A stretch of DNA of 64,000 nt. Source: Bacteroides sp. Its GTDB lineage: Bacteria; Bacteroidota; Bacteroidia; Bacteroidales; Bacteroidaceae. Each line of letters begins with the position of its first letter. Positions within the stretch are counted from its first letter, which is position 1. Positions 7,766-49,434 of this stretch are shown here, in pieces. The position numbers and the translations under genes were made by a program. Location: contig JAVBVA010000009.1 of NCBI GenBank assembly GCA_031554665.1, positions 2,911 through 66,910 on the forward strand. Reading direction: 5' to 3'. The notes beneath the pieces were generated by a model. It made no database searches. It was not told where the DNA came from and saw only the letters and a program-made list of their open reading frames with translations.

Positions 7766-7793
7766 CACACACCGCAAGCACTAAATACAGCAC

Positions 7794-7842
7794 AAAGCAG
7801 ACAGTCTTTCAATCAAAAGGGTTAAGACTGTCTGCTTTTTTT
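7794..7842 (+). terminator. Intrinsic terminator after GH28
   Basis: aaagcagacagtctt / aagactgtctgcttt 15-bp stem followed by a T-tract. Confidence 0.85.
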
Positions 7843-28552: not shown

Positions 28553-28637
28553 GATATGATTAATAAGATTAAATATTCCGGAGGTAAAGATAGAGTGTTT
28601 CGAAAAAGTAAAGTGGTAATAATTGGGATGATTTATG

Positions 28638-28675
28638 GAAAAGGTGCACAAACTGGTTAATTTATGCACCTTTTC
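28638..28675 (-). terminator. Terminator after the HTCS
   Basis: gaaaaggtgca / tgcaccttttc 11-bp stem. Confidence 0.7.
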
Positions 28676-28695
28676 TATAAAGAGGGAAGTAGCTG

Positions 28696-31600: not shown

Positions 31601-33201
31601 CCCGATGTCGAAGTACGTTCGGCACGCACCAACCCATCTCCCTTGGTAGCAAACCACATCACTCCTTTGGAATCTTGTATGATGCAATATACCGCTCCCA
31701 ACATGGGAGTTCCTGTTGAAGATACCGTACCCGATTCGGTGAGATATCCCTTGAGATTTCGATGACGGTCGTACACCCGCAGTTTTCCGTCCTTTAATCC
31801 CATCCACAGGTTCTGATCTTTGTCTTCACATAGTGCGCGCACGTCATTGCCCAATGTCTCCGGTATTTCGGACACAGGTGTAAGCAGAGTGAACTGAGAA
31901 GTCCGGAAAGTGACCTTCTCTAGTCCTTTTGAGTGGGAGGATATCCACAAGTTACCTTGTTTGTCGGAGAAAGCTGAATGCAACTTATTAGAGAATCGCC
32001 AATCCTGGTTCCCCAGTTCGTTGTAGAAAGGTACAAGTTTGTTGGCTTTCCGGTCGAAATAAGAGAAGCCTCCCCCATAAGGATGCACCCAGAGATATCC
32101 GTTCACATCTTCATGGATATGGAATGCCGGACGTGAGCGGTCGGAGCTGGTGTACTCCACTTTGATCTGCTCTCTTTTGAGTATACCGGTATGCGGGTTG
32201 AAATGAGCCACTACGCCTGCTTCTTCCTGTTCGAACCATACCTCCGATGTGCGATCCACATAAGCAGAAAGAATCGGTTTGGCAGGTAAATCTTTACAAA
32301 GCGTATGCGAGTAGTGTATTTTTTCTTCCGTCACGCGGTTGTACACAAAAAAGCCGTCGGTCGATGTGGTGATCACCACTTTATCGGGGGACACCGTATT
32401 GATAGACACGATTGACGCCGAGGTCGGAAGTTCGAGTAAGTGAAACTGCCCGTCCTTCTTGGAGTACCGCCACACACGTCCCCGCTCGGAACCGAAGCAA
32501 ATCTCATCAGCATGTTCCTGCACAGCATAAAAAGCCTGACGGTCGGCCCGCTGGTCTTTGGTTTCCACAAAATAGCTGACAGGGGTTTTCTCTCCCGGTC
32601 GAATCATCCCCAATCCATTGTCGGTCAGGATCCATTCATTACCCTCCAGATCCTGGTGAGCCTTGAATACATGTACAGCCGGAAACAGTCCTGTTTTGAT
32701 GGAATATACGGATGTCGACAGTTTCAGAGTTTTAGGATTGGTCGTTACCCGGATAGCCCCGTCATTATCGGTCAGCAACCACACGCTGCCATTAGGTAGT
32801 GGACGTATTCCATTGATATTGTATGTACTTCCATCCTCTCCGGCTGCCGGTACCTGCTCAAAGGTCTCCTTTCGCGGATCGAAACGATGCGCCCGGTTAT
32901 CGTATGTCTGCAGCCACAGACAATCATTTACGTCTTCGTAAAGGCGGTCTACACGGTTATTGGTCAGGCTGATATAGCTTCCCTGCCGCGCCTTATATAC
33001 CATAAATGAATAACCGTTGAACCGGTTAATACCATCCCACGTGGCAAACCACAGATTGCCTTTATGGTCTTGCAACATACTCATCACTGTAGTTTGCGAC
33101 AAGCCATCTTCTGTGGAATAATGGGTGAAAGAGCAATTCTTCTGGGCGTTCACCGTCAAGCCAAGGGCTAGAAATAAGGCAATGTATATTATTCTCTTCA
33201 T
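28696..33201 (-). CDS. Hybrid two-component system (beta-propeller sensor, Y_Y_Y, HisKA, HATPase, receiver, AraC HTH)
   Basis: Reg_prop-type repeats, FFTNISHELRTPL H-box, STGIGL G2 box, DIIISDVMMP receiver, INDPRYFSKCFK AraC HTH. Confidence 0.96.
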   Translation of the reverse strand: MKRIIYIALFLALGLTVNAQKNCSFTHYSTEDGLSQTTVMSMLQDHKGNLWFATWDGINRFNGYSFMVYKARQGSYISLTNNRVDRLYEDVNDCLWLQTYDNRAHRFDPRKETFEQVPAAGEDGSTYNINGIRPLPNGSVWLLTDNDGAIRVTTNPKTLKLSTSVYSIKTGLFPAVHVFKAHQDLEGNEWILTDNGLGMIRPGEKTPVSYFVETKDQRADRQAFYAVQEHADEICFGSERGRVWRYSKKDGQFHLLELPTSASIVSINTVSPDKVVITTSTDGFFVYNRVTEEKIHYSHTLCKDLPAKPILSAYVDRTSEVWFEQEEAGVVAHFNPHTGILKREQIKVEYTSSDRSRPAFHIHEDVNGYLWVHPYGGGFSYFDRKANKLVPFYNELGNQDWRFSNKLHSAFSDKQGNLWISSHSKGLEKVTFRTSQFTLLTPVSEIPETLGNDVRALCEDKDQNLWMGLKDGKLRVYDRHRNLKGYLTESGTVSSTGTPMLGAVYCIIQDSKGVMWFATKGDGLVRAERTSTSGMTYKLTRYRNDDKDMYSLSNDNVYCVYEDHHGRIWVATFANGINYISQDKSGRTIFINHRNNLKGFPINLCYRSRFITSDHNGRLWVGTTAGAVAFDENFNKPEDIVFHLFSRIPDDPKSLSNNDVHWITSTQDKELYLGTFGGGLNKLVSINDDGHGEFKSYSVLDGLSSDVILSIREDNQHNLWLATENGISKFVPSEQTFDNYNQRSIGFRVRLSEAASVMTSTGDLVFGASNGSLFFNPDSVSKSRYVPPIVFSNLVIANKNVMPDDDNSLLKVGLDDTKELVLSHKESIFTIQYAALDFTSPGNIQYAYMLEGFENQWTYVDKLRSATFTNLPKGDYIFKVRSTNSDGVWVDNIRALSIVVLPSFWETPIAYFLYVMGIVLIILVAVYILFTIYRLKHEVSVEQQVSDIKLRFFTNISHELRTPLTLIAGPVEHVLKNSRLPEDAREQLIVVERNTNRMLRLVNQILDFRKIQNKKMKMQVQRLDVVAFVRKIMANFESLALEHQIDFLFETEKDELYLWVDADKFEKIVFNLLSNAFKYTPNGKLISVFIREDEDTVSVGVQDQGIGIAENRKKSLFVRFENLVDKNLFNQGSTGIGLSLVKELVEMHKATISVESKLGEGSCFQVDFLKGKEHYDKTVEYVVEDSVPVGDKVPVHLPVVLPVTNITTVETDLSTEDEDMPQQEVMLLVEDNQELRFFLRSIFAQSYRVVEAADGMEGWHKALTFLPDIIISDVMMPEKDGIQLTKELRAEMTTSHIPIVLLTAKSAIESKLEGLEYGADDYITKPFSATYLRARVENLLAQRRKLREFYRDNLMSHAAAPSLQSLPEEVVETPGEELSGDEQQQTLEMSVNDRKFMDKLVDLMEKNMDNGDLVVDMLVRELAVSRSVFFKKLKTLTGLAPIEFIKEMRINRAAQLIETGEFNMTQISYMVGINDPRYFSKCFKAKYGMTPTEFRDNLAKK

Positions 33202-34596: not shown

Positions 34597-37161
34597 TTAT
34601 TCTAACAGTTTTACACACCGCACATTAGCAGCGCCAACGTTACCACCACCAGCGCCTTGCCCATCATAGCGTAAGTCATAATACCAATAAGCTAATCCTG
34701 CCGTACCATTTAATAGAGTTTGGTAATAAACGCGCTGACGTCCGAACGGTAAATTGTCCTGAGAATGTGAGTAGTATGGGCCTGAATTTGACCAATGGTT
34801 TCCAAAAGTTTGCCCACTCGCTGCCACCATTGCTGAATGCATGGCAGTAGCAGGTAAACTCCATCCGGATGGGCACGGATTTGGTGGAGTATTCACGTAA
34901 ACGCCTCCCCATCTTAAGCCGACGGCGTTATCGCTGGTATTCATTAGATAATAGTGGCCACCGTACTCGAAAACATATCCGAATTGACCGTTAATATCTA
35001 CCGACAGTGTTTCAAAATATGTATGATTCAGTGGCTTAAAAATTATTGTCGATTTTCCCGAGATTGTTGATGCGTTTCCGTTTATCATCCTGAAAGAGAC
35101 CGGTTCACCATTGATCGGGTCGCCCATCCCAGACAATACAGTCAGACCACCTTCGTCAATGGCCGTCCCTCCCGCTTCGATTTCAGCCATCCAGGGCGCA
35201 TTTGCATAAACCTTGATAGTTTGTAACTCTCCCATTAACTGATAAGCTGGAGAGGCTGTTACAACTATTGCATAATTTTTTTGCCTCAGTATGATCGTCT
35301 TCATTAGTAATCCGCCTTCTCCATTCTCTGCCGTGACCTCCAGGCGTGAGACCTTTTCGAGGAAACGGTTGCCGGTGACGGGATCCACTTCATTTGCAGT
35401 GAAATCCGCGGGCGTAACCGTAAAATTATGACTATTCCCGGCCAATGTTTGGGGAGCGGAAGTTGGCAGCCCGGAGAGTCCCTGCAAGCCTCCGTTCTGA
35501 ACCGGCCTAATGTAGTAGTTGGCCGAGTTGGCATACCAGTTCAGTACAAACTGTTGTGGTACTATTGGATCGAGGGCATATAAACCGCTGGGGAATACGA
35601 TCTCTTCTACGTTCGGTAAAATATATAATGCAAACTGGGTTTTCAAGGTTTGTGTAACCTTTACTTTATATATCAATCGTCCGGAGGCGATATGAATATA
35701 CGCTGTTCTTTCCGTCAATCCGGTGTTGGCATCCATTGATAATATGACGGTGGTTCTACCCGCCGATGCTGAAGTGGAGGACACACGCAGCCACGGGTTT
35801 CCTGTGGTTTGGTCGTTAGACAGAGCTACAGTTCCGGCCTGATCGTTCCAGATTGTTGCTTGCCAGCCGGTCGGAACGTCGGTCTCAACAAACAGTGTGT
35901 TATCGTTGCTCGAAGCATTGCGAGATTCGCGAGTAAATTCAAATTCGCCTTTGCTGACGGATAGATAGTATTGCCCGTCGAAGACAATCTCTCCCATATC
36001 GGTTTCGTCCCATTCGTAGATATCGACCGCCATATTCATAGCTTGGGAGTTGTAGGCAGTTTCGGGGTCGGGATAGCCTCCGCCTGTTACTTTCGAGATG
36101 TTGAACTGATAGAGATGGTTTCGGAGGACATTTACAAGCGACTTGTTTACGGCGAAGTCAAGGCGGTAAAATGTTTCTGTCGTGCTGCCATTGAAGTATC
36201 CGCCCACAACTAACGCCATACGGTTGGTGTGGTTTTCATCGCCCAGTGTGCCCGCACCACCCATCACAATATTCGCTTCAGGAACATAAATATCGCGCGA
36301 GGTGTAGCCGCCCGTTGCGCTTGCGGTAGCGGCAAATCCGAAATTGGTTTCGGATGCGGCCAACGAAAAGGCGGTGGTACCCGCCGGGACAGTCGGTTCA
36401 CCCACCGCTTTGGAGGCATCAGGCGCTACGGCATAGCGGTTATTGGGCTTCATGACATAAACGTGCGCCAATTCGAAGGGGATAGTCGCACTGGCGGCAT
36501 CCTTGCCGTCCCAAGTCCAGGCATCGGTGCTGCTGCTTTTCGTCGGGCGCCCCACACCCACGTCGATACGCGCCACCGAGCGCGTGAGTTGCAGCGTGCG
36601 GTTGGTGGTACCCGGCTCAATCACTACCTGCCCGCTTTCGCCCCACATCGGGATTGTTCCGCCGGAGGAGTACATTGGCCCGCTAAGTTGTCCCTGTATG
36701 GAAGTCATCACTATCGTGTAGCTTTTATTGCTTATCTGCGACACATCGAAACCAATCGTATTGGTGAGAATAGTCTGTGCATTCGCCAACACGACGAGGT
36801 TGTAGGTGTCCACCGTAGTTTTACTCGCTTCGAGCGTAACGCTGAACGATCCCTCGCCACTGTAGGCGGGGTTGGTATGGCCCGAACTGCTTGTTACGTT
36901 CGCTCCCTGCTCGATAGCAACGAGCGTATTCGTTTTGTCGAACACAAGCACGAAAATATCATTGATGGTATTCTCTTGCTCATACGTCAGCGCACGGTTT
37001 TTTACCTGCGAGAAACCATCAGGCGTTTTAAGCCGCAGAACCACCTGGGCAGCGCCCTGTTTTATGGGCATACCGCCGTCATCTATATCTTTATCCGCGA
37101 TACACGAAAAGGTGATAAGTGAAACTGCCGCAAGAATAAGTGCGGGAAAAATCTTCTTCAT
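34597..37161 (-). CDS. Type V pilus minor/tip subunit (pilin domain, BACON-like domain, C-terminal CLec-like domain)
   Basis: Lipobox TFSC; NR-A processing site; TRSVARIDV pilin motif; internal donor-strand-like MAVDIYEWD; BACON-like W..V....SAG.TTV.LSMDANTG..ERTAYI; C-terminal NPCPSGWSLP...VRCVK. Confidence 0.78.
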   Translation of the reverse strand: MKKIFPALILAAVSLITFSCIADKDIDDGGMPIKQGAAQVVLRLKTPDGFSQVKNRALTYEQENTINDIFVLVFDKTNTLVAIEQGANVTSSSGHTNPAYSGEGSFSVTLEASKTTVDTYNLVVLANAQTILTNTIGFDVSQISNKSYTIVMTSIQGQLSGPMYSSGGTIPMWGESGQVVIEPGTTNRTLQLTRSVARIDVGVGRPTKSSSTDAWTWDGKDAASATIPFELAHVYVMKPNNRYAVAPDASKAVGEPTVPAGTTAFSLAASETNFGFAATASATGGYTSRDIYVPEANIVMGGAGTLGDENHTNRMALVVGGYFNGSTTETFYRLDFAVNKSLVNVLRNHLYQFNISKVTGGGYPDPETAYNSQAMNMAVDIYEWDETDMGEIVFDGQYYLSVSKGEFEFTRESRNASSNDNTLFVETDVPTGWQATIWNDQAGTVALSNDQTTGNPWLRVSSTSASAGRTTVILSMDANTGLTERTAYIHIASGRLIYKVKVTQTLKTQFALYILPNVEEIVFPSGLYALDPIVPQQFVLNWYANSANYYIRPVQNGGLQGLSGLPTSAPQTLAGNSHNFTVTPADFTANEVDPVTGNRFLEKVSRLEVTAENGEGGLLMKTIILRQKNYAIVVTASPAYQLMGELQTIKVYANAPWMAEIEAGGTAIDEGGLTVLSGMGDPINGEPVSFRMINGNASTISGKSTIIFKPLNHTYFETLSVDINGQFGYVFEYGGHYYLMNTSDNAVGLRWGGVYVNTPPNPCPSGWSLPATAMHSAMVAASGQTFGNHWSNSGPYYSHSQDNLPFGRQRVYYQTLLNGTAGLAYWYYDLRYDGQGAGGGNVGAANVRCVKLLE

Positions 37162-37196
37162 ATAGCTGTTTTTTTATTATTTCCATTTTTCAAAAC

Positions 37197-38240
37197 CTAA
37201 TTGCGCCCGATATCAGGTGTGGTATCGGCAATCTCGAAGCCGTTCACGGTGACTTTTATCCTCAGATCGTGCAGGATAGAGATTTCGATCGGAAACTCGT
37301 CCTCGCAGTCGATTTCCTCCTGCGTCTGCCAAAGAAGGTTACCCTGCGCATTACGCGCCTGCCGGATTGTTCCGATAACGTCGAGCGGAAGGATCATATC
37401 CTGTCCCGTCGCCGGGCTTTGCAGGAAGAGCAGCACAGGATTGGAGGCGAGATAGGCTATATCGAGCCGTTGAACCTTTATATCTACATCCATAGCCGTC
37501 GCGGTAAGCGTTTTATACGGCGGCTCATAACGCATCTGGCGGGCGTTTCCGCAGATGGCATTGTTCCAGCCGTAGCGCTCGTTTTTACCAACTGCAAACA
37601 CGTTGAGCGGTGCGGCTCCCGTGCCGGGCGTGAAGGGCGGCAGGTATTCGAGGCCCGTAATATGGACTTTCAGCGTGCTTGTATTTTTAAGAAAATCAAA
37701 ATCTACCGTCCGGCTCGTTCCCATGGCGACCTCGATACCGGATGCCATAGCAAAGAATAGGTGGTCGAACTGTGCTGTTTGCGGTGTGACCTGTCCGATG
37801 GAGCCATTCGGCAACGGTTCGGAACCGAGCATCATGCGGAAGTTATCGAGTGTAGTAACGCCGACCCTCGCCTGCGGAATGTAAGTGTGTGTGCCGGCAT
37901 TGGACATTTCGGCGGCCACATAGCCCCCCTGCAACAAATCAGTGCCACTTCCGGCCCATGCAACAGCGGTATAAACCCCGGCGGGAATGTCCGGTTCGAT
38001 CCACCCCAGGACGATATCGGCCTGATCCACGCGGATAATATTGGCCAGCTTGTTTGTCGTTTGGTCGAACAGGTAAATGCGGATATCCTGTACCTGTACG
38101 GCCAGTTGATCCTGCCGCTGGTTATTGTAAGTGTAGCTGAACTGGAACCGGAGTTTCGGCTCACAGTCGCTTTGATCTTCCTTAATGCAACCGGCCATCG
38201 TGCAGGCCAGCAGGGATAAAATGACGATTCTTTTGAACAT
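37197..38240 (-). CDS. FimB/Mfa2-family pilus anchor lipoprotein
   Basis: Lipobox MAGC-IKEDQSDC, LRFQFSYTYN, DIRIYLFD motifs. Start moved to ATG 38240. Confidence 0.82.
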   Translation of the reverse strand: MFKRIVILSLLACTMAGCIKEDQSDCEPKLRFQFSYTYNNQRQDQLAVQVQDIRIYLFDQTTNKLANIIRVDQADIVLGWIEPDIPAGVYTAVAWAGSGTDLLQGGYVAAEMSNAGTHTYIPQARVGVTTLDNFRMMLGSEPLPNGSIGQVTPQTAQFDHLFFAMASGIEVAMGTSRTVDFDFLKNTSTLKVHITGLEYLPPFTPGTGAAPLNVFAVGKNERYGWNNAICGNARQMRYEPPYKTLTATAMDVDIKVQRLDIAYLASNPVLLFLQSPATGQDMILPLDVIGTIRQARNAQGNLLWQTQEEIDCEDEFPIEISILHDLRIKVTVNGFEIADTTPDIGRN

Positions 38241-38354
38241 ATTCGATTGTTTATGTTTTTGAACGGTTGCGTTTCTTTTGTACCGTCCTGTTGCGCCATT
38301 CCCGCCGCAAAGCGGGCACACGTCGTGCGCCGGATACCCGGAAAGGCAATTTGT

Positions 38355-38383
38355 AACCGGCAGGAGTGTCCCCCCTGCCGGTT
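38355..38383 (-). terminator. Intra-operon hairpin after the major pilin gene
   Basis: aaccggcagg / cctgccggtt 10-bp stem, 12 nt past the stop. Confidence 0.65.
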
Positions 38384-38395
38384 TTAGTAGTAAGT

Positions 38396-39445
38396 TTAGA
38401 GTATTGCGTCGGGAGTTACGAGTACCCACTCTTCGATGGTAACCTCCAGCGTCAGTGTTACATCCACCGGATTCGGGGTCAGGCCCAGATCGTCTTCGCC
38501 GAAGGTGATACCGTTCGTACCACCGATGCGGTAGATCTTGCCACGCTCGAATACGGTCGAACCGAGGTTATTGTAACCCGTCACGGTCAGGTAATAGGTC
38601 GTTCCGCTCAGGTCAACTTCAGGATCAGAACCGACTTTGTACTTCACGCCGTCCAGTGCGATGATAAAGCGGGGCAGAGCGCCCGAAGCCACGTTATGTG
38701 CCCATACATTGCCCGAAGCCGGAGCAGCTACCAGCGGCGTGCCGGTTGCCGCCCAAGTACCAGCATCACCGATACCTGTGAAAGTAGCGCTTTGGTCCTG
38801 AGAGAACATGGTACCGGCAAAGCCACCTGCATAGGTGAACGAAGGATGGTAGTTATCCACATACACGCCCTTCACGTTAAAAGCAGTGATATTCGTGCCA
38901 CCCTCAATCTGGGTTAGCTCCAGGCGGGAGATCAACGGTTTGATCGATACGTCCACCGTAGCGGTATTGTTAGCACCCGGAACAATCGAGGCAGGAATGC
39001 CATTTGAATTGGCCAAAGCTGCATCCCTGTAATCCACTTGCGTGGTCATCAGTGACGCCGCAGCTTGAAGATCGGTGATCGTGGTTTTTGCTGAGATCGT
39101 TGCAAGGTCACTGGACGGAATGTTACCGATGATGTAGATACGCGAGTCAGCTGCAACAGCCTGTCCCAATACTTGACCTGAGCCGGTGGTAGCTTGAATT
39201 ACGTTCAATGCCTCGTGGTAAGTTACTCCACCCATCGGGTTGATTACGAAAATGTGCCCATCGTTGAGCCGGATAGTACCTATGGCAGTAGAACCCGGAG
39301 CCTCTACGGCCCTCGACTGGATCACGCCCGAAACTTTGATCGAAACGTGCGTAGCATCTTTACCGGCACCGCCGTTTTCATCCTTAGAACAGGATGTGAA
39401 AACCATTGCTGCGATTGCAGCAGTCATTAAAAGAACTTTTTTCAT
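38396..39445 (-). CDS. Type V pilus major stalk subunit (FimA/Mfa1-like)
   Basis: Lipobox FTSC-SKDE, SR-A maturation site, PLISRLEL, FERGKIYRI, C-terminal donor strand LTLEVTIEEWVLVTPDAIL. Confidence 0.82.
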   Translation of the reverse strand: MKKVLLMTAAIAAMVFTSCSKDENGGAGKDATHVSIKVSGVIQSRAVEAPGSTAIGTIRLNDGHIFVINPMGGVTYHEALNVIQATTGSGQVLGQAVAADSRIYIIGNIPSSDLATISAKTTITDLQAAASLMTTQVDYRDAALANSNGIPASIVPGANNTATVDVSIKPLISRLELTQIEGGTNITAFNVKGVYVDNYHPSFTYAGGFAGTMFSQDQSATFTGIGDAGTWAATGTPLVAAPASGNVWAHNVASGALPRFIIALDGVKYKVGSDPEVDLSGTTYYLTVTGYNNLGSTVFERGKIYRIGGTNGITFGEDDLGLTPNPVDVTLTLEVTIEEWVLVTPDAIL

Positions 39446-39501
39446 TTGTGTAAAAATTAAAAATTAATAAAAATGGTTGTTTGAAAATATTTACTCTCGT
39501 T

Positions 39502-41166
39502 TTACTGATTGTCTGATTCTCTTGTTTTGAAGCACTTTACCAGTTCTCCCGTATTCCGGATCGCCTCGGCGTTGCCTGCGGCTTTGGCAAAACATTCCGC
39601 AGCCTTCTGCTTGTCGCCCTGCATGTATGCTAGTATCCCGGCATTGTTCCAGTAGGCAGGTGTGTGTCCCTTTACCTTTTGCAGGTATTGGGCGGCCGAT
39701 ACCGCATCCTTACGGTTCAGTGCATTGGCAGCGGCATTGATATTGGCTACATCACTTGCGGGGAAAATCCGGGCCGCTGTTTCAAACACTTCGTTGAAAG
39801 CGGTGCTGCCCGGCTCGTAGGTATCTGCAATAAGGAACATTTCGTTGAGCGATAGGCTTGATGGCTTAGTCTTGAATACTGCCTTACCTTTCTCGACCGT
39901 GAATGGAAGTACCGTATAATGCAGTTCGTAGTCCGAACGGCGAAGCTGCGGGAACAATTCGACCTTCATCTGACGGTAAGGATTGCCACCGGATAAGTCC
40001 ATTAGCTTTTTCTCCCGTCCATCGAAAATGTCCGTGCCGCGTATGATTTCCAGTATGCGGTATTTATCGGCCATGCCCGATTGCTCGACCAGCACATCGA
40101 GGGTTTTCCAGTCCTCGCCCCGGCCTTCTACCCGGAACAAACCATGGGAGAAGCCGTACATGGACCGGATATGCTCTTTCAAGGCATTGGCACGGTGCTG
40201 GGAAAGCGTCATATTCGATTCATACGTTCCTTCGGGTGAAGCGTAGCCCGTGATGGTGATGCCGGTAATGGTAGCATCCGGATCATTCTGTACCTGACGG
40301 ATCAGGGCGTGTATCTTATCCAGTTCGACAGCATTGTTCTTGAACGAGGGTACGATTTCCGAACGTCCTACTACAAAGTCCAGATATGCCTTGCCCGCTT
40401 CGCTACGTTGCTTCACCGTTTCCACTTCGGGGGTAATGAAACTGACAGCAAACTGTGGAACGTAGGCAACTACCGGTTTGGCGGGTTCCGGTTCCTTTAC
40501 CACTACTGGCGGGATATATACCGGTTCGGGGTTCTGTACCGGCTTTTTCTTTGCGCCGAAACTATATATTAAGGAGATAGCCGCCTTTGTGGGACCAATA
40601 TAGTTCTTTACCTCACTGCCGATCTTCTCCCCGCAATGGGTGCAAGGGTATTTGTCATACGACAGGTAAGCATAGCCCACACCGATTTCAGCCTCCATTG
40701 CCAGGCGGTGGTTGAAATTCCACCGATAGCCGTAACCGATACCTGCACCGGCCAGCCAGCCCTCAAAGCGGTGGGCATTCATGTATTCCGAAAACGGAGG
40801 ATTGTCGAGACCGCCTATATTATAATAACCATAGTGCGCGTGCAACCCGAAGAACGATCTCCGGAAGGTTTCACCCGGCCAGAAACGGAATTCCGGCTGG
40901 ATAAGCAGGTGCTTCCATTTCCTGTTATTATCAAAAGTCCAGGGATTGTAATTGCCCGAGATCTCGAATGATGTTTTTCTACCTGTCTTAAATTCCATCC
41001 CTAAATTAATAGTGGTAGTGGCATCGTAGAGCAAATTAGTTTTGATGCCCCAGGTCGGCAGCGTATAAACAGACGCTTCCGGTGTTGTAGTTTCCTGTGC
41101 GAGGCACGTATTACCGATAACTATGGCAGTTATCGCAGTCAATAGACATTTTCTCATGTATTGCAT
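39502..41166 (-). CDS. DUF3575 beta-barrel fused to an OmpA-like/DUF3868-type domain; first gene of the pilus operon
   Basis: WGIKTNLLYDATTTINLG, QPEFRFW and GPTKAAISLIY (DUF3575); ITGYASPEG..N..LSQHRA (OmpA-like). Start moved to ATG 41166 because the track's extension runs through the recombination site. Confidence 0.82.
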   Translation of the reverse strand: MQYMRKCLLTAITAIVIGNTCLAQETTTPEASVYTLPTWGIKTNLLYDATTTINLGMEFKTGRKTSFEISGNYNPWTFDNNRKWKHLLIQPEFRFWPGETFRRSFFGLHAHYGYYNIGGLDNPPFSEYMNAHRFEGWLAGAGIGYGYRWNFNHRLAMEAEIGVGYAYLSYDKYPCTHCGEKIGSEVKNYIGPTKAAISLIYSFGAKKKPVQNPEPVYIPPVVVKEPEPAKPVVAYVPQFAVSFITPEVETVKQRSEAGKAYLDFVVGRSEIVPSFKNNAVELDKIHALIRQVQNDPDATITGITITGYASPEGTYESNMTLSQHRANALKEHIRSMYGFSHGLFRVEGRGEDWKTLDVLVEQSGMADKYRILEIIRGTDIFDGREKKLMDLSGGNPYRQMKVELFPQLRRSDYELHYTVLPFTVEKGKAVFKTKPSSLSLNEMFLIADTYEPGSTAFNEVFETAARIFPASDVANINAAANALNRKDAVSAAQYLQKVKGHTPAYWNNAGILAYMQGDKQKAAECFAKAAGNAEAIRNTGELVKCFKTRESDNQ

Positions 41167-41194
41167 GTCGTTTTCTTCTTGTTTTACTTGTCCT

Positions 41195-41218
41195 GCACTA
41201 TGTAGTGCAGGACACATT
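41195..41218 (+). repeat. Left inverted repeat of the invertible cassette
   Basis: gcactatgtagtgcaggacacatt is the exact reverse complement of 42410-42433 (27/28 when extended outward). Confidence 0.92.
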
Positions 41219-41448
41219 TGATCGTATTTCTCTAACCAATTGATAAACAATAGGATACAGAAAATTAAGGTACTAACAAATCAACACTCGCCAAACATTG
41301 GTAAAACAAGGGATGGGGACGGAATGTAGCCGAAAGCAGCCAAGGCCACACAGAGACAGGATTTACGGGCAGAAGAAAGCCCGGTAAAACGAGCCATTAG
41401 TAAAACATTTGTAAAACAACAGGACAATCTATTAAATATCAATACTAT

Positions 41449-42324
41449 ATGGAATTATTGAACATTCAGGAGCACAAACGCTGTTTGAGTTTTGAGCATT
41501 CGCAGCACCCGATGATCGAGGTACGGAAAACACTTCACGGGCATGAAGGCGAATTGGAGTTTGCATGCAACGAAATCGTATTCGTGTTGGAAGGGAAAAT
41601 AGACTTTTTTTTCCGTGATCACCCGGAGAAAACAGTACAAAAAGGTCAATTCTTTTTTATACCGACGGTCGGCGTGTTCCGTTACAAGGCCGAACGCAAA
41701 AGTATGGTGCTGGTAATCCGCTTACACGACCGGATACGGCTGTGCCGGGGGATGACGGTGGAGCAGCTGTATGACAAAGCGAAAGCCGGAGAGGCGTTAA
41801 AAAAAGCAGAGGCCGTTTCCATGCTCGACATCAACGTACACCTACAGCACTTCCTGACCGGAATTTGCGAAGTGCTGGCCGATGGTTTGCAATGCCGCCA
41901 CTACTTTGAAACCAAGACGCAGGAGTTGTTTTTTCTGCTCAGGACATACTACCCAAGGGAAAAGCTCCATGAATTCTTTTCGCTGATACTGACCCCCGAC
42001 ACGGCGTTTTCCGAATATATACGGGCGAATGCACTGAAATATAAAACGGTTGGTGATTTTGCTTCAGCACTACACATGACACCCCGCCAGTTTTCCGACA
42101 AATTCAATAGGGTATTCCGGCAAGCACCCTACGCTTGGATGAAGCAGGAAAAAGTACGCATGATACAGGCTGATCTTATGCAAGGCGAAAAGGATAACAA
42201 GCAGATAGCCCACGAATACGGTTTCTCAACACCGAACCATTTATATGACTTTTGTAAGGAAAATTTAGGTAAAACACCAGGGGAAATCCGTTGCAACAGT
42301 AGGATTGGAGAAAAACGGGAGTAA
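41449..42324 (+). CDS. AraC-family transcriptional regulator lying inside the inverted repeats
   Basis: Cupin-like N-terminus (NEIVFVLEG); double HTH FASALHMTPRQFSDKF...IAHEYGFSTPNHLYDFCK. Confidence 0.92.
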   Translation: MELLNIQEHKRCLSFEHSQHPMIEVRKTLHGHEGELEFACNEIVFVLEGKIDFFFRDHPEKTVQKGQFFFIPTVGVFRYKAERKSMVLVIRLHDRIRLCRGMTVEQLYDKAKAGEALKKAEAVSMLDINVHLQHFLTGICEVLADGLQCRHYFETKTQELFFLLRTYYPREKLHEFFSLILTPDTAFSEYIRANALKYKTVGDFASALHMTPRQFSDKFNRVFRQAPYAWMKQEKVRMIQADLMQGEKDNKQIAHEYGFSTPNHLYDFCKENLGKTPGEIRCNSRIGEKRE

Positions 42325-42364
42325 AATGTCCTGATTTTGGACTTCATAATCGGAAATTATCTTC

Positions 42365-42372
42365 TACTTTTG
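42365..42372 (+). promoter_or_regulatory. Invertible internal promoter -7 element
   Basis: TACTTTTG lies 37 nt inside the right IR and has no sense gene downstream in this orientation. TTTG at 42336-42339 is 25 nt upstream, longer than the usual spacing. Confidence 0.7.
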
Positions 42373-42409
42373 CAGACAGAATAAAGAAATGCAAAGTAGT
42401 TAAACCAAT

Positions 42410-42433
42410 AATGTGTCCTGCACTACATAGTGC
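42410..42433 (-). repeat. Right inverted repeat of the invertible cassette
   Basis: aatgtgtcctgcactacatagtgc, the reverse complement of 41195-41218. Confidence 0.92.
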
Positions 42434-42462
42434 CGGATAACTGTAAACTAAGTTTAACGATA

Positions 42463-42470
42463 CAAAGATA
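42463..42470 (-). promoter_or_regulatory. Fixed external promoter -7 element pointing into the cassette
   Basis: caaagata reads TATCTTTG on -, 29 nt outside the right IR. A TTG (caa 42492-42494) lies 21 nt upstream. Confidence 0.65.
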
Positions 42471-42679: not shown

Positions 42680-43978
42680 TTATTTCCCAACTGCCGCCAT
42701 ACCCGATGGCCTCGACAGCAGGGTCACAATAATGTGGTACGCCTGATCGTAGTACGAACGTTCAAAGGAAGCAAAATAGTTGTGCGTCATCTTCTCGGTA
42801 GAGTGCCCCAGCATTTCGCTGATAACACCCGCAGGCATCCCGCCGCCCCGGACAAGGGTGGCAAACGAGTGACGTGCAACATGTGTGGTCAGCCGCTTAT
42901 CCTTGCCAATGGCTGCCAGCTTCGCCAATGCTTTCAGTCGCCGGTTTTGTGTCCGCAGTGCGGTTTCGTATTCGCGGCGGGCGGTTTCCCCTTCGCCGGT
43001 AATGATGGGGAACAGGTAGGGAGAATCTCTTACCTCGTCGGCAAAGCTGTCGATGATTTGCTGCATACCCTCGTTTACCTTCACTTCCACCTGCTTGCGG
43101 GTTTTCTTGCGGTAGTAAGTACAGATACCATCTTTTATATTTTCTTTCCGGAGGTGGGCCATATCAATGAAACACATCCCCTGTGCGAAAAAGCAGAACA
43201 TAAACAAGCGGTGGGCGAAGTGCAGGTTCTCGGTATGTTCCCGTCCGCATGTCCCGGCAGGGTGCCTCTTCCGCAGAGCATCGAAGTCGACTTCGTAGAA
43301 GTGGGTGGTTTCCTCTACCGTCAGGGCGCGTTTGGCTGTTTGGTGTACCTTTGTATAGACCCCGGCAAAAGGATTGCTCTGTTTGACCGGTATGCGGCGG
43401 GCTTTGACGGCCTTGTTATAAATTGCCCGCAGGTTACGCATATAGAACGAGATGGTATTGGGTTTCAATCCCCGGTTCATCATGGCTGTTTCAAAGTCTT
43501 TCATCAGCGTGGCATTAATATGGTTAAGGGGAATATCCACGTTTTTGTTAAACTTTACCAACCCGTTAGACACAGTACGGTAGGCATCTGCCAGCCGGAA
43601 TTGCTTATTTTGTTCCGCTTCCTCCGCCAACGCTTCGGCATAGCCCAGCAACTTGCCGTCATCTTTCTTGCGGCGCAGCTTCCCGACAATATCCCCGACG
43701 GTATAGCGCCCTTGCTTTTCAAGCGAAGTAACGATATCCTGCACTGTTTCGACAGAGGCGGCGATCTTTGCCTCCACTTCTTCCAAATACGCCGTCCGCC
43801 CGGGGTCGTTTTCGGGGTAAATCACAGTTTGCTGTTCTCTGTCCCATTCCTGGGGGTAGAGGTAGCAACCTAAAGCGGTTGTTTTGCCCTTACGGTAATG
43901 TAGTACACGCAGGGATAGGCTTCCTGGGTGGTGGCCTTTCCGGGTGGAAGGCCGCAATACAAAGTTTACTGATGTCAT
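42680..43978 (-). CDS. Tyrosine recombinase (Arm-binding, SAM-like and catalytic domains)
   Basis: PNTISFYMRNLRAIYNKA, THVARHSFAT (HxxR), MLGHS, catalytic Tyr in MTHNYF. -7 element TAACTTTG at 44007-44014 (-). Confidence 0.93.
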   Translation of the reverse strand: MTSVNFVLRPSTRKGHHPGSLSLRVLHYRKGKTTALGCYLYPQEWDREQQTVIYPENDPGRTAYLEEVEAKIAASVETVQDIVTSLEKQGRYTVGDIVGKLRRKKDDGKLLGYAEALAEEAEQNKQFRLADAYRTVSNGLVKFNKNVDIPLNHINATLMKDFETAMMNRGLKPNTISFYMRNLRAIYNKAVKARRIPVKQSNPFAGVYTKVHQTAKRALTVEETTHFYEVDFDALRKRHPAGTCGREHTENLHFAHRLFMFCFFAQGMCFIDMAHLRKENIKDGICTYYRKKTRKQVEVKVNEGMQQIIDSFADEVRDSPYLFPIITGEGETARREYETALRTQNRRLKALAKLAAIGKDKRLTTHVARHSFATLVRGGGMPAGVISEMLGHSTEKMTHNYFASFERSYYDQAYHIIVTLLSRPSGMAAVGK

Positions 43979-44170
43979 TGTTCGATAAATAAAATTTAAA
44001 TTTCTGCAAAGTTAGCCCTTACCTGTGTGGGTAACAGAAAGAATTCTAAATAGTTTTCAATTGTACCCATTTACGAGTATTCATAAAATCATGTTTGACT
44101 CTATATAAATTAATATTCACACCGTTGCATAAATTTATTGCCGGATATGGATACAAGTATTGTTATTTTA

Positions 44171-44300
44171 GAAAACAGCTATTCGTATCAGTGCATTATT
44201 TCTTTCGTATCAGTGCATTGATACGAAAGAAATAATGCACTGATATGAAAGAATGAATGCACTGATACGAATACTGATTAGGCAAGCTGAAAATAGCTAT
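44171..44300. repeat. Palindromic array of ~22-bp units with near-direct flanking 12-mers
   Basis: ttcgtatcagtgcatt twice, then inverted units (aatgcac)tgatacgaa three times. Flanks are gaaaacagctat (44171-44182) and gaaaatagctat (44289-44300). Confidence 0.85.
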
Positions 44301-44520
44301 ATGCATCCCAAGGAATTAAAATATGCAAGCCTGCTATTAATTTTATTCCACTTTCTTGGTGCTGATAGATACTTTCTTGAATGACCCCTGGGTCAAAAAT
44401 GTTAGTACCTTACAAGGAAGCAACTTAACATTTAGTAAGCTATTAAATTCCATACAGTTATATTATAAAAGATATTTTTTCTTCTTATCTTTGCAGCCTC
44501 GTAAAACGTAAAATCAGCTT

Positions 44521-47500
44521 ATGGATACAAATTTCATTGCCCGTACAACGCAAAAGGCGATTGTACTCAACACACAACACACAAAACTAAAGCGGCTCTC
44601 TTCTCTTCTATTATTCCAGCTCTTTGTCTGTGCTTTATTGTCTGCTCAAAAAAGAGACAGTTGCATTCTGGTAATCAACACTTACACAGAAATGGAAGCT
44701 CTGAGCGACAATATTGCTAATACTCTTTTGCATAATCTACCGCACGAATACCGAGGAACTTCGGTTGCCTTCGAAAACCTGAGCATGCTTTTGGTTAATA
44801 CCGAAGAAGAACTGGACACCCTTAAGAGTCGTCTGTTCAAGACTTATCAACAACGCCCTCCCAAGCTGATCATTATGGAAGGGAATAGTGTTTGGGGGCT
44901 GTTACACAAGGATATCAAGAAACGTTGGCAGAATGTTCCCATTGTTCTCTGTGCCGAAAAAGATTATATGGGGCCCGAAGAAGCCTATCTTAAAAAATAT
45001 GCCATTACTCCGGGGCAACGAGTTCCCTTGTCTCAGGCATTAAAAGGGGAAAATGTAGTAGTGGTACATACCGGTTACTATATAAGCGAAACCATCTCAT
45101 TAATGAAAAAGCTACAACCGCAGATAAAGCGTTTGGCGTTCATCTCCGATAGACGATGGATCAATGCACAAAACCGGGAAGAATTGTCGGCAGTTGTTGA
45201 GAAGCAATATCCGGAATTAAAAGTTGACTACTTTACAGGAGGGGATATCTCTACAAACGACCTTCTCGATTCGTTGAACACATTCGACCAGAACACCGGT
45301 ATACTGCTCTGTTCCTGGTACATGCGCGATGTGCTGACCAATCAGGGGGTCATCAACACCCGCGGATACCGGGTGCTTGCCCGGCAGACTCAGCAACCGG
45401 TCTTCACGTTATCTGATATCGGAGTAAAGGATCGGGAACTTGTCGGAGGATATTTCCAAATGCTTGATAGTATCAGTATAGCCGTGACCCGAACTGTACA
45501 TGGCATTCTATCGGGTAAACGGGCAGAATTCATGCCGCCAGTCCAAGTACAAGCACAGCCGGTATTCAACTACTGGGACTTCAACCGGGTAGGTTTCTCA
45601 GAAGCATTATGCCCCGCCGGCACCTTCTTTTACGAAAAACCGGGAAGTTTTCTGAGCAAGTACAAGTACCATATAGGAGCCATTTCGGTACTCCTACTAT
45701 TCGTCTTTATCTTGATGTACTACCGCATCCTTGCCGACAAAAAACTTCAGAAGAGCCAAGCCAAAGAAATAGATACCATGCGGAAGCTCGACCACCTGTT
45801 CAACCACATGCCCATCGGCTACCTCAACAGCCGGGTGGTCAGGAATGAGCAGGGAGAAGTGTGTGATTATGTATTGCAACGGTTGAACCCGGCTTTCAAG
45901 CAACTGATCCTCCCTAAAGAAGAAGTGGATTCAGTCGATTTTGCCTGGCGTCTGGATGCCAAACGTCGCAAAGAGTATATCCACCAGATCAATCTTGTGT
46001 GCAGTAAGCAACGCAGTATCACTACTCAATATTATCATCGGGAAACCAATCGCACGATTACCTTAATATATACTCCCTCCGAAAAAGCGGATGAAGTAGA
46101 TATGTATTGCGTGGACAATACCGAACTGGCACAGGCACAACAACTACTCAGGACAGTAAACCACAAACTAACAATGGCGTTGGATGTGGCCAACCTGGTG
46201 CCCTGGAAATGGGATCTCAAGAAACGCACCATCCTGTGTGACGTGAACCGGCCGTTGGAGCTCGCCAACTCCATTGACAAAGCCGAAGACCAACTGTCGG
46301 TACCCGACCGGGAATACTTCTCGAAGATATGCAAGGAAGACCGGGAGCGTGTACGGAAAGCTTATCAGAACCTGATTCTGGGTAAGGTAGAAAAGATTAG
46401 AGAAGAATACCGTGTGCTGACCGTCAAAGGAAAAGAACGCTTCTTCGACTGGGTAGAAGCTCAGGCAGCGATCGACCAGCGGGATACAGAAGGAAATCCG
46501 CTGACACTCATCGGCTCGTCCCTCGTCATCACCGAGCGCAAACGAATGGAGCACGAACTGATCTCCGCCAAAGACCAGGCCGAAGAATCGAGCCGGTTGA
46601 AATCGGCTTTTCTTGCCAACATGAGTCATGAGATACGTACGCCGCTCAATGCTATTATCGGATTCTCCGGCATACTGGCATCGGCCAAAGAGGAGGAAGA
46701 GAAGCAAGAGTATATCAGCATTATTGAGAATAATAACACACTGTTATTGCAACTCATCAATGATATTCTCGACCTTTCGAAGATTGAAGCAGGCACCTTG
46801 GAGTTCACTTACTCCAACATCGACCTGAACCTGCTGATGCGCGAAATTGAGCAGTCGTCGCGCTTACGGCAAGGAGCCGAACACCTGGCCATCGACTTTG
46901 AACCGGGATTGCCCGATTGTTTCGTTCACACAGAGAAGAACCGGTTAATGCAAGTGCTCACCAATCTGATAACCAATGCTATCAAGTTTACTACAGAGGG
47001 TGGCATACGTTTCGGATATACACTCCAACCCGATGGTAACCTGCGTTTCTTTGTTGCAGATACGGGATGCGGCATTCCCCAAGAAGCGCAAGACCAGGTC
47101 TTTGGCAGATTCGTGAAACTGAACAATTTCGTACAGGGTACCGGACTGGGGTTGTCGATCTGTGAAACGATCATAAAAAATCTCAAAGGTACTATCGGCG
47201 TAGACTCGGAACCGGGTAAAGGGTCTACGTTCTGGTTCACTATTCCCTACGACCCGGTACAGTTATCCGAAAAACAAGTAAAAGAGTACAAGCAAATTAC
47301 AATTCATAAAACCAAAGAAGAGAAACTCACCGTACTGATAGCCGAAGACAATGCGAGCAACTTCCGCCTGCTCGAATCGATTCTGCAAAACGACTACCAC
47401 CTGATCCATGCCTGGAACGGAAAAGAAGCCGTAGAGCAGTTCGAGCTACATCAACCGGAAATGGTGCTGATGGATATCAACATGCCCGAAATGAATGGAT

Positions 47501-47694
47501 ATGAGGCAACGGAGGAGATCAGGAAGCTATCGGACAGTGTGCCTATCATTGCCCTCACAGCATACGCGTATGCCTCAGACGAAGAAAAGATTCTGAGCAG
47601 CGGGTTCGATGCTTACACTCCGAAACCTCTGGATGCCAACCGTTTGCGAAGGCAGATGCACGAATTACAGCAAAGCAGGTTGCTGTTTTTGTAA
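44521..47694 (+). CDS. Hybrid sensor histidine kinase (periplasmic binding-type sensor, PAS-like, HisKA, HATPase, receiver)
   Basis: [17 protein letters not shown]-box, DTGCGI G1, GTGLGL G2, MVLMDINMP receiver. -7 element TATCTTTG at 44486-44493. Confidence 0.93.
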
Positions 47695-47706
47695 GATTTC
47701 GCTTAT

Positions 47707-49434
47707 TTACCGCTTCACATCCAGCAACGCATTACCGTTCTTCACCGGATTCCAACCATCGTCACCGGCCAGTACCGTTTCTATCTCATACCCTTTCAAG
47801 TCTTTCAACTGATGGGAGAACGGTGCGCGGGCTGTCGGGTTGGCTCCTTCGCCCTTGCTTTGATATTCGGCATAGAATACTGTCTGCTCAGCCTCCTTCT
47901 TCGACCAGTTGTTCCAACCCACGGGGGCAATATGCTTGCCCAGGTTGCACCGCACGTACACCGCTTTTGCATACGGACGCCAGGGGCGCGACAGGAATAC
48001 CTGATCTGCGCCGGCAGCAGCCACCAGGGTACAATCGTAAAACACGTAGCCATACTTACTTTCTTTATCGGTCGACGGAGCGGTAACATAACCATTAGTC
48101 AGGCTGCGGATGGTGCACCCGTTGAACACTGCCGTAGACCAGCCGAAGATGAAATCGACCGTTCCTTCGATGTAACAATGATCGTAATACTGACGGCTAT
48201 GCTTACCATACGTATAGAGTGTATCCTGGAAACCAAGGAAGTGACATTTCTTGAAATAGACCCGGTCGCCCGCAACGAAACAAGCCACCGCCTGCCCTAC
48301 CGGTCCGGAACTATTCTCAAATGCGATATTCTCCGCATAGAAATCGGGTGCATAGATGTAGCAGGTCGATGAGCCCGACGTACCTTTATTTTCGCCAAAC
48401 ACATTCTTCTTGTCGGCATAGTCGTCGTACGTCAGTACGGTACGATCTTCTCCTATCAGCGAAATGTTGATCTTGCTTTCGGGCACCACCACCTTCTCTT
48501 TGTACACTCCTTTGCGTACCAGGATGGTGGTACGAATGTTCTTGCGGAAATCGGGCACCGCATTGATGGCTTCCTGAATGGTGAAGAAGTCACCGCTACC
48601 GTCCTTTGCTACTACATAGTCGAACCTCCGGATGTGTTTAGCCAAGTCGGGAATCTGCTTCTCGATGGCATCCACCGCCAAACCGGCCATCACCTTGGCA
48701 CCATACACATTAAGATGGGTATTGTCTTCGCGGCCGTTCGGAGCAGCGGCAACTGTATTCGGTTCCACCCATACGAAGAGTTTCTTCGAGTCTACCGGTC
48801 CCATGCCCTGCACCAGATCGTGCGTCAGTTTATTCATGTCGATGAATGTTACACCCAGCGCCTTCGCGACATTGCGCGGAGAGTCCAGATAGGCTCCGTG
48901 AGTATCGTACAACACATCGCCCTCTACCGGTTGTTCATCCTTCCCGGCATCCTTGCGTTCGTCTTTGGCTATCGCATCATCCTGCGGACGAACGAAGTTG
49001 CGCCGGACAATGGCATTGAACAGCACCGGAATACCTCCTTTGGCGCGTGTTTCCTCCACGAAACGTTTCAGGTTGGCATCGAACGTCGTTCCCGGATCGG
49101 TATGACGGTCGGGGTTGGGTTTCTCATCGTTGTGGCCAAACTGTATGAAAACATAATCACCTTTCTTTACTTGTGAGATCACTTTCTCCCAACGCCCTTC
49201 GTCGATAAAGCTCTTCGAGCTGCGCCCGTTCATGGCATGGTTGTCCACCCGTACCCCTTCATCGAAATAGCGCGGTAAGGCATGTCCCCATCCCCGCTCC
49301 GGATTTCCTCCGGTAATGGGCTTGTTGGCCATGGTCGAATCACCGATCATAAAGATAGTAATCACAGGTTGGTCTGCCCGGAAGGCCGTCAGCAGAAAGA
49401 AAGACACGAGTAATAGAATCAATTTGTTTTTCAT
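47707..49434 (-). CDS. Bifunctional pectin esterase: SGNH acetylesterase (CE12-like) fused to pectin methylesterase (CE8)
   Basis: GDST, QFGHND and DNTH (SGNH); GQAVA, GFQDTL, GTVDFIFG and LSRPW (CE8). Confidence 0.93.
   Translation of the reverse strand: MKNKLILLLVSFFLLTAFRADQPVITIFMIGDSTMANKPITGGNPERGWGHALPRYFDEGVRVDNHAMNGRSSKSFIDEGRWEKVISQVKKGDYVFIQFGHNDEKPNPDRHTDPGTTFDANLKRFVEETRAKGGIPVLFNAIVRRNFVRPQDDAIAKDERKDAGKDEQPVEGDVLYDTHGAYLDSPRNVAKALGVTFIDMNKLTHDLVQGMGPVDSKKLFVWVEPNTVAAAPNGREDNTHLNVYGAKVMAGLAVDAIEKQIPDLAKHIRRFDYVVAKDGSGDFFTIQEAINAVPDFRKNIRTTILVRKGVYKEKVVVPESKINISLIGEDRTVLTYDDYADKKNVFGENKGTSGSSTCYIYAPDFYAENIAFENSSGPVGQAVACFVAGDRVYFKKCHFLGFQDTLYTYGKHSRQYYDHCYIEGTVDFIFGWSTAVFNGCTIRSLTNGYVTAPSTDKESKYGYVFYDCTLVAAAGADQVFLSRPWRPYAKAVYVRCNLGKHIAPVGWNNWSKKEAEQTVFYAEYQSKGEGANPTARAPFSHQLKDLKGYEIETVLAGDDGWNPVKNGNALLDVKR

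Follow-up and report, generated by a model that had tools for sequence, protein, structure and literature searches.

The question raised by the locus described here is how a pilus operon might be turned on when no canonical promoter element lies immediately in front of it and the adjoining DNA, which is enclosed in perfect inverted repeats (IRs), holds a complete gene for an AraC-family regulator. The locus was found in a contig (JAVBVA010000009.1, assembly GCA_031554665.1) that is assigned to Bacteroides sp. and comes from an invertebrate-gut metagenome; positions are given here for the 64,000-nucleotide (nt) stretch that was analysed, positions 2,911 to 66,910 of that contig, to which we refer as the window. 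The operon specifies a type V pilus, a class that includes the major adhesins of gut Bacteroidota. We consider it probable that the segment between the IRs is a recombinase-driven switch that has been assembled in its OFF state, and that a flip would make araC and an internal promoter, P_int, co-directional with the pilus operon and so turn the operon on. A design of this kind had been proposed from the letters of the sequence alone (the original prediction), and the positions that it gave for the IRs, the interior, araC, the two -7 boxes, the first pilus ATG and the recombinase gene were all reproduced in our analysis.

The 1191-bp segment and its parts

The perfect 24-bp IR GCACTATGTAGTGCAGGACACATT occupies 41195-41218 on the plus strand and 42410-42433 on the minus strand, with an interior of 1191 bp between the arms. 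The sequence has no further match with three or fewer mismatches anywhere in the 64 kb, a 24-bp IR arose in none of 100 dinucleotide-preserving shuffles, and a repeat finder extends the repeat to 31 nt at 94%. Each arm belongs to a slightly longer recombination site. The left site, IRL (41190-41218), includes the near-palindrome GTCCTGCACTA-TG-TAGTGCAGGAC at 41190-41213, of which the asymmetric central TG lies at 41201-41202, and the right site, IRR (42410-42438), includes GTCCTGCACTA-CA-TAGTGCCGGAT at 42415-42438. Both consist of 11-bp arms that form inverted half-sites around a short asymmetric centre, which is the organization of a core-type site for a tyrosine recombinase. The central dinucleotide of IRR is inverted relative to that of IRL, and from this opposite polarity inversion is predicted rather than excision. 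As judged from its sequence, the segment thus bears every hallmark of a tyrosine-recombinase inverton. The ON orientation would be recognized on the plus strand by the junctions GCAGGACACATTATTGGTTTAACTAC and GAAATACGATCAAATGTGTCCTGC, for which the predicted junction sequences are CTTGTTTTACTTGTCCTGCACTATGTAGTGCAGGACACATTATTGGTTTAACTACTTTGC on the pilus side and GGTTAGAGAAATACGATCAAATGTGTCCTGCACTACATAGTGCCGGATAACTG on the recombinase side.

The candidate agent of such an inversion is encoded next to the segment, at 42680-43978 on the minus strand. It is a 432-residue tyrosine recombinase of the three-domain, IntDOT-like type (Pfam Arm-DNA-bind_5, Phage_int_SAM_5 and Phage_integrase), the stop codon of which (42680) lies 246 nt outside the right IR. 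The open reading frame (ORF) is intact, the HxxRH motif and the Tyr nucleophile are present, and the gene has a promoter of its own, TAACTTTGCAG, at 44014-44004 on the minus strand. In a comparison with a XerC-like structure, the position of the first catalytic Arg (GLR) aligns with GMC at about residues 262-264 of the recombinase; Bacteroides integrases of the IntDOT type are known to lack the first catalytic Arg. The site core CACTATGTAGTGCAGGACA is identical in the window and in a related locus (L001) from a metagenome-assembled genome (MAG) of the same sample, the AraC protein of which is only about 63% identical to that of the window. The L001 recombinase is 70% identical to the one considered here, and recombinases that are 42-53% identical pair with sites of the GACACTTnnnAAGTGTC type. 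Site type therefore tracks the relatedness of the recombinases, a pattern expected of co-evolving recombinase-site pairs.

Two boxes that fit the Bacteroidetes -7 consensus, TAnnTTTG, flank the right site. P_int (TACTTTTG, followed by CAG) lies at 42365-42372 on the plus strand, 37 nt inside IRR, with the nearest TTTG, judged by eye, about 25 nt upstream of the box as a candidate -33 element. It now aims out of the segment at the recombinase gene; after inversion it would aim at the pilus operon from a predicted position of 41256-41263, 90 nt from the pilus ATG. The external promoter, P_ext (TATCTTTG), lies at 42463-42470 on the minus strand, the strand of the recombinase and pilus genes, 29 nt outside IRR, and aims into the segment. 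The consensus occurs 58 times on the two strands of the window, which corresponds to a chance of about 1% per given strand per 25-nt slot. Its longer form, TAnnTTTGCAG, occurs four times, once as P_int and twice just upstream of the recombinase and histidine-kinase genes. The original prediction of a two-promoter design is borne out by conservation, with a canonical outward box 26-44 nt inside the IR next to the 3' end of araC in 15 of 16 OFF-oriented loci (P_int), and an inward box 21-44 nt outside the recombinase-proximal IR in 17 of 18 araC invertons (P_ext).

No such element faces the operon from nearby. The first pilus ATG, at 41166, lies 28 nt outside the left IR, and, in agreement with the original prediction, the pilus strand holds no canonical TAnnTTTG between that ATG and araC (41167-41448). 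The interval from the left IR to the pilus ATG is without a canonical box in the window and in 16 of 17 relatives, and the interval from the IR to the araC ATG is without one in 14 of 18 loci. Scans of the window for sigma-70 promoters and for terminators were uninformative for a Bacteroidetes genome.

The regulator gene, araC (41449-42324, plus strand), lies wholly inside the segment and specifies a protein of 291 residues (Pfam HTH_18, 2.9e-16). The cupin-like domain that had been suspected in its N-terminal part is matched only weakly in sequence (Cupin_2, 1.3e-4, below the Pfam cut-off), but is seen in an AlphaFold model (predicted local distance difference test score, pLDDT, 83) as a beta-barrel of the ToxT/Rns type at residues 23-99, followed by a double helix-turn-helix (HTH). 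The best fold matches of the model in the PDB are ToxT, Rns and CsvR (E about 5e-10), although the sequence identity to these proteins is only 11-15%; isolated cupins also match. The combination of an N-terminal cupin-like barrel and a C-terminal double HTH places the protein among the ToxT/Rns-like members of the AraC/XylS family. ToxT, Rns and CsvR are AraC-family activators dedicated to pilus operons, and the cupin-like domain of ToxT and Rns binds fatty acids. Ligand sensing by the AraC protein of the window, which the original prediction had raised, is structurally reasonable on the strength of the model, as a conjecture.

In the mechanism that we propose, a phase-variation switch, the adjacent IntDOT-like recombinase would pair the two near-palindromic core sites and flip the 1191-bp segment as a cassette, the parts of which would be a paired AAACATTnGTAAAAC motif (described below), araC and the outward-facing P_int. 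In the OFF state P_int would fire toward the recombinase and meet P_ext head-on, and the pilus operon would be left with no promoter of its own; the present orientation of the window corresponds to this state, as had been predicted. In the ON state the order on the pilus strand would be recombinase, P_ext, araC, P_int, IRL and pilus operon, which would put araC in sense behind P_ext and leave 90 nt between P_int and the first pilus gene. We infer that the copy in the window still flips, that P_ext drives araC and would do so only after the flip, and that P_int or the pilus operon might be activated, perhaps in a ligand-dependent way, by the ToxT/Rns-like AraC protein.

Related loci and the paired motif

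Relatives of the locus were found as AraC homologues of 26-63% identity that were traced to contigs and to GTDB genomes. The survey for loci with the composition integrase-IR-araC-IR-DUF3575, which had been suggested with the original prediction as a check in both orientations, yielded more than 20 independent Bacteroidales loci that share the order pilus operon, IR, araC, IR and recombinase, and both orientations are represented among the genomes. In addition to L001, the family includes human-gut contigs (L012-17), three loci of Bacteroides sp. GD17, and members in Bacteroides sp. OM05-12, Parabacteroides spp., B. reticulotermitis, Dysgonomonas spp. and an Apibacter MAG; B. reticulotermitis JCM 10512 and Parabacteroides sp. 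PF5-6 are among its cultured carriers. The interiors of the related araC invertons measure 1175-1231 nt. The IR sequence varies across the family, and most loci other than those of the window and L001 have variants of TCTGACACTT-nnn-AAGTGTCGGA; in each related locus one IR copy matches the other, with its asymmetric centre inverted. Other routes to relatives were less productive: a single-protein AraC scan of GTDB genomes detected none, a metagenome scan with alignment A2 detected only two distant loci, and an exact-core scan detected, beyond L001, only chance matches in a conserved coding motif (L006, L007). In three loci (L061, L062 and L064) from some Parabacteroides and Bacteroides the araC match falls into two tblastn pieces, and these are probably frameshifted pseudogenes. 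In the locus of D. capnocytophagoides DSM 22835 (L030), an araC-like N-terminal frame (MDINTLEHTC...) lies at about 3600-3750, just outside the left IR and in place of the pilus operon, and the locus may be rearranged or decayed. The breadth of the family indicates that the regulator-in-inverton design is not a peculiarity of B. fragilis, the species in which it has been described (see below), but is conserved across Dysgonomonas, Parabacteroides, Bacteroides, Proteiniphilum and insect-gut lineages.

In a second class of loci, IR and recombinase are both missing, and araC immediately precedes a DUF3575 pilus operon that is read in the same direction. Five of these loci (L004, L046, L048, L050 and L055) have a -7 box between araC and the operon, and another (L009) resembles them without a canonical box. 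The layout of this class is the one predicted for the ON state of the invertible loci. The ON layout that had been predicted for the window thus finds a counterpart in the non-invertible relatives, and also in the transcribed orientation of the B. fragilis locus of recombinase Tsr16 (PMC13139388).

The segment in the window also contains two copies of a 15-nt motif, AAACATTnGTAAAAC, on the plus strand at 41293-41307 and 41403-41417, with a partial third copy at 41392-41406. Each copy consists of two GTAAAAC units 11 bp apart, and the first copy begins 75 nt inside IRL. Most of the invertible loci have two copies in the same register, spaced by 110-123 nt, the first of which begins about 75-100 nt in from one IR. 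The pair is absent from the non-invertible araC-pilus loci and present in invertons that have no araC, namely L022 and seven invertons of Dysgonomonas sp. 521. A scan of 185,579 GTDB species genomes for the paired pattern yielded 21 loci, all in Bacteroidales, and wherever the contig was long enough to tell, the locus was part of an inverton. This position and distribution fit arm-type sites, the recombinase carries an Arm-DNA-bind_5 domain, and the paired motif may, on these grounds, represent arm-type sites for the N-terminal domain of the recombinase. In a first reading the motif, as AAACATTTGTAAAAC, was taken for an AraC operator or for araC's own promoter. That assignment is now thought unlikely because the motif occurs in araC-less invertons and is missing from non-invertible araC loci, and because its TTTG varies, with TTAG or TTCG in its place in several loci. 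Together with near-palindromic IRs, the paired motif provides a sequence signature by which both kinds of inverton might be found without read data.

The seven invertons of Dysgonomonas sp. 521 (L066, L069, L071, L073, L074, L076 and L081) are near-identical promoter-only elements with the paired motif, an interior of 386-396 nt and the IR GTCTCTTTATAAGTGAC. No relative of the recombinase was detected in the 6.6-8 kb of sequence that represents each locus, and the arrangement suggests a master invertase that acts in trans.

The family as a whole leads us to a tentative view of its origin, which we would regard as possible but rather doubtful in its full form. The araC inverton might be derived from a promoter inverton that is widespread in Bacteroidales, by the placement of a ToxT/Rns-like gene between the arm-type sites and the promoter, such that an external promoter that was always present would express the regulator only after a flip. 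Genomes with three or four such loci (Bacteroides sp. GD17, B. reticulotermitis) are known, and the regulators could cross-regulate other pilus loci or the switching itself, and so limit production to a single pilus type at any one time; the paired AAACATTnGTAAAAC motif might then provide directionality or environmental control. Cross-regulation of this kind, if it occurs, would parallel the action of UpxZ on capsules or the cross-talk between PapB and FimB.

Orientation, expression and alternative explanations

Evidence that elements of this family invert comes from the relatives. Two loci are flipped relative to the recombinase, one in D. capnocytophagoides DSM 22835 (L030) and one in a Proteiniphilum MAG (L038), and in the latter the accessory motif is found at the opposite IR, where an inversion would have placed it. 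A 1221-nt contig (L084) that encodes an AraC protein of 46% identity starts and ends exactly with its own 23-nt IR; with k = 31, a unitig can end at the outer boundary of a 23-nt repeat only where each end of the interior is connected to two different flanks, which suggests that both orientations were present in the sample. Among five homologue contigs of about 1.2 kb, L084 is the only one with IR-bounded ends. In a 599-nt contig of D. termitidis CCUG 66188 (L034), the flank and TCTGACACTTAGCAAGTGTCGG site at one end recur in reverse complement at the other, with an interior of about 480 nt between them; this is the assembly signature of a promoter-only inverton of the family, with sites of the same type, that is present in both orientations in an isolate.

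No RNA words were found for the locus of the window. Some indication of promoter activity is available from a metatranscriptome of the same study, which covered the OFF-oriented L001. There the pilus operon has almost no RNA, and RNA contigs cover part of araC and the recombinase gene. One of them (6949-7811) begins about 22 nt downstream of the P_int box (6920-6927) and continues through the IR into the recombinase gene, and a gap separates it from the araC contig (6342-6782). These contigs are unstranded; their positions fit a P_int that fires outward in the OFF state.

Several observations weigh against the switch that we propose. No inverted junction was found for the window locus in the one run that contains it, where Logan contigs at about 13x show the OFF orientation only and one contig spans the whole segment as it stands in the window; Logan contigs drop minority variants. 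Eight gut runs that were compared with the relative L052 likewise showed the reference orientation only. The two flipped loci, L030 and L038, have a degenerate P_int and no full pilus operon, and may be decayed copies. The araC-less inverton L022, which measures 481 nt, has the same P_int/P_ext geometry as the araC invertons, and on this comparison of sequences P_ext was in place before araC was acquired and cannot be an adaptation for araC. The unstranded araC RNA of L001 could be sense RNA from an unrecognized internal promoter. A minus-strand TACTTTTG inside araC (41697-41704), which the original prediction missed, is directed at the pilus operon with the segment as it now stands; the relatives do not share this box, which could be a source of leaky pilus transcription or of antisense transcription in the OFF state. 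Finally, the likeness of the window to the Tsr16 locus is one of published layout.

Some of these points favor an explanation in which the switch is real and araC is its passenger, transcribed in both states from a non-canonical promoter of its own inside the segment, with only P_int gated by orientation and the AraC protein serving as a ligand-dependent layer of control. P_ext would then have some other role, for example to oppose P_int and so protect the recombinase mRNA, or to act as a second, tandem promoter of the operon. The geometry of L022 and the araC RNA in L001, where the OFF orientation dominates, are what this explanation would lead one to expect, and the second copy of the paired motif (AACATTTG, which approximates a -7 box) lies 19-40 nt upstream of the araC ATG. 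The same RNA could, however, be antisense RNA from P_ext; the TTTG of the motif varies and the motif occurs where there is no araC; and in 14 of the 18 loci the stretch from the IR to the araC ATG lacks a canonical -7 box. We regard this alternative as unlikely, yet as the most serious of those considered. It is considerably less likely still that the copy in the window is a fossil or locked inverton that no longer flips, with its pili permanently off or driven by read-through. The single orientation in the contigs of the sole run with the locus, and the fact that most of the relatives' assemblies have the same orientation, would be accounted for in this way, but a low-frequency switch would also give consensus assemblies dominated by the OFF state, and decay would hardly be expected to leave an IR that is perfect over 24 bp, a recombinase ORF that is intact with its HxxRH and Tyr, and intact versions of P_int, P_ext and both motif copies.

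A different kind of objection is that the repeats might not be inversion sites at all, but the ends of a mobile araC cassette, attachment (att) sites of an integrated element, terminator hairpins or AraC operators, since each arm is a palindrome that can form a hairpin and a phage-type integrase lies next to it. A pair of attachment sites consists of direct repeats, but all of the loci considered here have an inverted asymmetric core; synteny with the same pilus operon and recombinase is kept across genera; no T-runs follow the hairpins; and sites of the same type flank segments that have no araC. With both orientations on record, and a contig that is bounded by its IRs, we would assign this objection a very low probability. 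The reading that we prefer, a switch in the OFF state in which the flip aligns araC and P_int with the pilus operon, is the one that we carry into the comparisons below.

Known switches and the surroundings of the locus

The original prediction implied that the design, with a whole regulator gene and two promoters, was new. In this respect it has to be corrected, as an inverton that contains a complete AraC-family gene and lies between a recombinase and a fimbria-like operon had already been described in B. fragilis, in a preprint of January 2025 (PMC11761130) and in Nature Communications in 2026 (PMC13139388). The AraC-family gene BF9343_RS20615 of strain NCTC 9343 is enclosed in perfect 23-bp IRs between recombinase Tsr16 (BF9343_RS20620) and the fimbria-like operon RS20580-20610 (PMC13139388; PMC11761130). 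In reads, the regulator gene is found inverted in those cells in which the operon is expressed (PMC13139388; preprint PMC11761130), and the operon is on with a co-oriented regulator and off with an inverted one (PMC13139388). The window resembles this locus in having a whole AraC gene within perfect IRs of similar length, an adjacent tyrosine recombinase on one side and, on the other, a pilus operon that lies on the strand of the recombinase. The orientation logic described for Tsr16, ON when co-oriented, is also the logic predicted for the window.

The two loci differ in the nature of the evidence, inversion having been shown by reads for Tsr16 and being predicted for the window, as well as in the host, an uncultured member of the Bacteroidales from an invertebrate gut as opposed to B. 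fragilis. B. fragilis was absent from the results of our AraC profile and motif searches. In the sections of the Tsr16 paper that were searched (PMC13139388), no description of P_int, P_ext or the paired AAACATTnGTAAAAC motif was found; the architecture shared by the family, the constant P_int/P_ext geometry, the connection with promoter-only invertons and the paired motif are additions to what those sections contain. The two-promoter geometry and the shared motif provide concrete parts from which the wiring of such switches might be worked out. In B. fragilis, a homologous kind of switch reportedly alters susceptibility to phage.

Promoter-only invertons with adjacent tyrosine recombinases are known for fimbrial and other surface-protein genes of Bacteroidales, with inverton groups linked to fimbrillin genes and to site-specific integrases (PMC11892184). 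These elements, as for example that of B. fragilis Tsr15, share with the window the class of recombinase, a short IR, an internal -7 promoter and an operon for a surface structure, and the site and motif family of the window has promoter-only members of its own in L022 and Dysgonomonas sp. 521. They measure about 0.3-0.5 kb, whereas the segment of the window measures about 1.2 kb and has a complete regulator gene between the motif and the promoter.

More distant parallels can be drawn with switches outside the Bacteroidota. In the H-segment of the Salmonella hin-fljBA system, one flip alters a surface gene and the regulator FljA, and a whole gene lies inside the segment; there, however, the internal gene is that of the serine invertase and the regulator is encoded beyond the segment, behind the promoter that flips, whereas in the window the internal gene is that of the regulator and a tyrosine recombinase lies outside. 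In the fimS switch of E. coli, the tyrosine recombinases FimB and FimE flip a pilus promoter, and there are accessory binding sites inside or beside the switch, the orientation of which can feed back on recombinase expression. In contrast to the window, fimS is an element of 314 bp with no gene inside, and the pili that it controls are of the chaperone-usher class rather than type V. ToxT, Rns and CsvR share with the AraC protein of the window a cupin-like N-terminal domain and two HTH motifs, but none of them is known to be encoded within an invertible element.

The pilus operon itself comprises four genes at 34597-41166, all of them on the minus strand, as is the recombinase gene. The first (39502-41166) specifies an outer-membrane protein with DUF3575, OmpA and TPR domains (Pfam DUF3575, 3e-66); it is followed by a gene for an Mfa1-like pilin (38396-39445, with weak NCBIfam Mfa1-family matches), one for an Mfa2-family anchor (37197-38429; Pfam PF08842, 1.3e-24) and one for a tip-like pilin of 854 residues with FimA and BACON domains (34597-37161; Pfam PF06321, P_gingi_FimA, 2.5e-7). 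Weak NCBIfam matches to the FimD tip adhesin were also found in the operon. The presence of pilins of the FimA/Mfa1 superfamily together with an Mfa2-type anchor identifies the operon as a type V pilus locus.

The genes beyond the downstream end of the operon are unrelated to it, and encode a hybrid two-component regulator (HTCS) and a GH28 protein. The island of pilus operon, inverton and recombinase is flanked by pectin-utilization genes (27137-33201 and 44521-49434 of the window); those of the HTCS regulator and GH28 form one flank, and those of a hybrid kinase and a pectinesterase/GDSL esterase form the other. The interval 44125-44328, which falls between the promoter of the recombinase gene and the gene for the hybrid histidine kinase, contains nested palindromes with 95-nt arms (72%) and 34-nt arms (94%). 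The k-mer depth over this interval in the source run is 41-45, as compared with 12-14 around it, which indicates a multicopy repeat that is possibly similar to miniature inverted-repeat transposable elements (MITE) or repetitive extragenic palindromic (REP) sequences.

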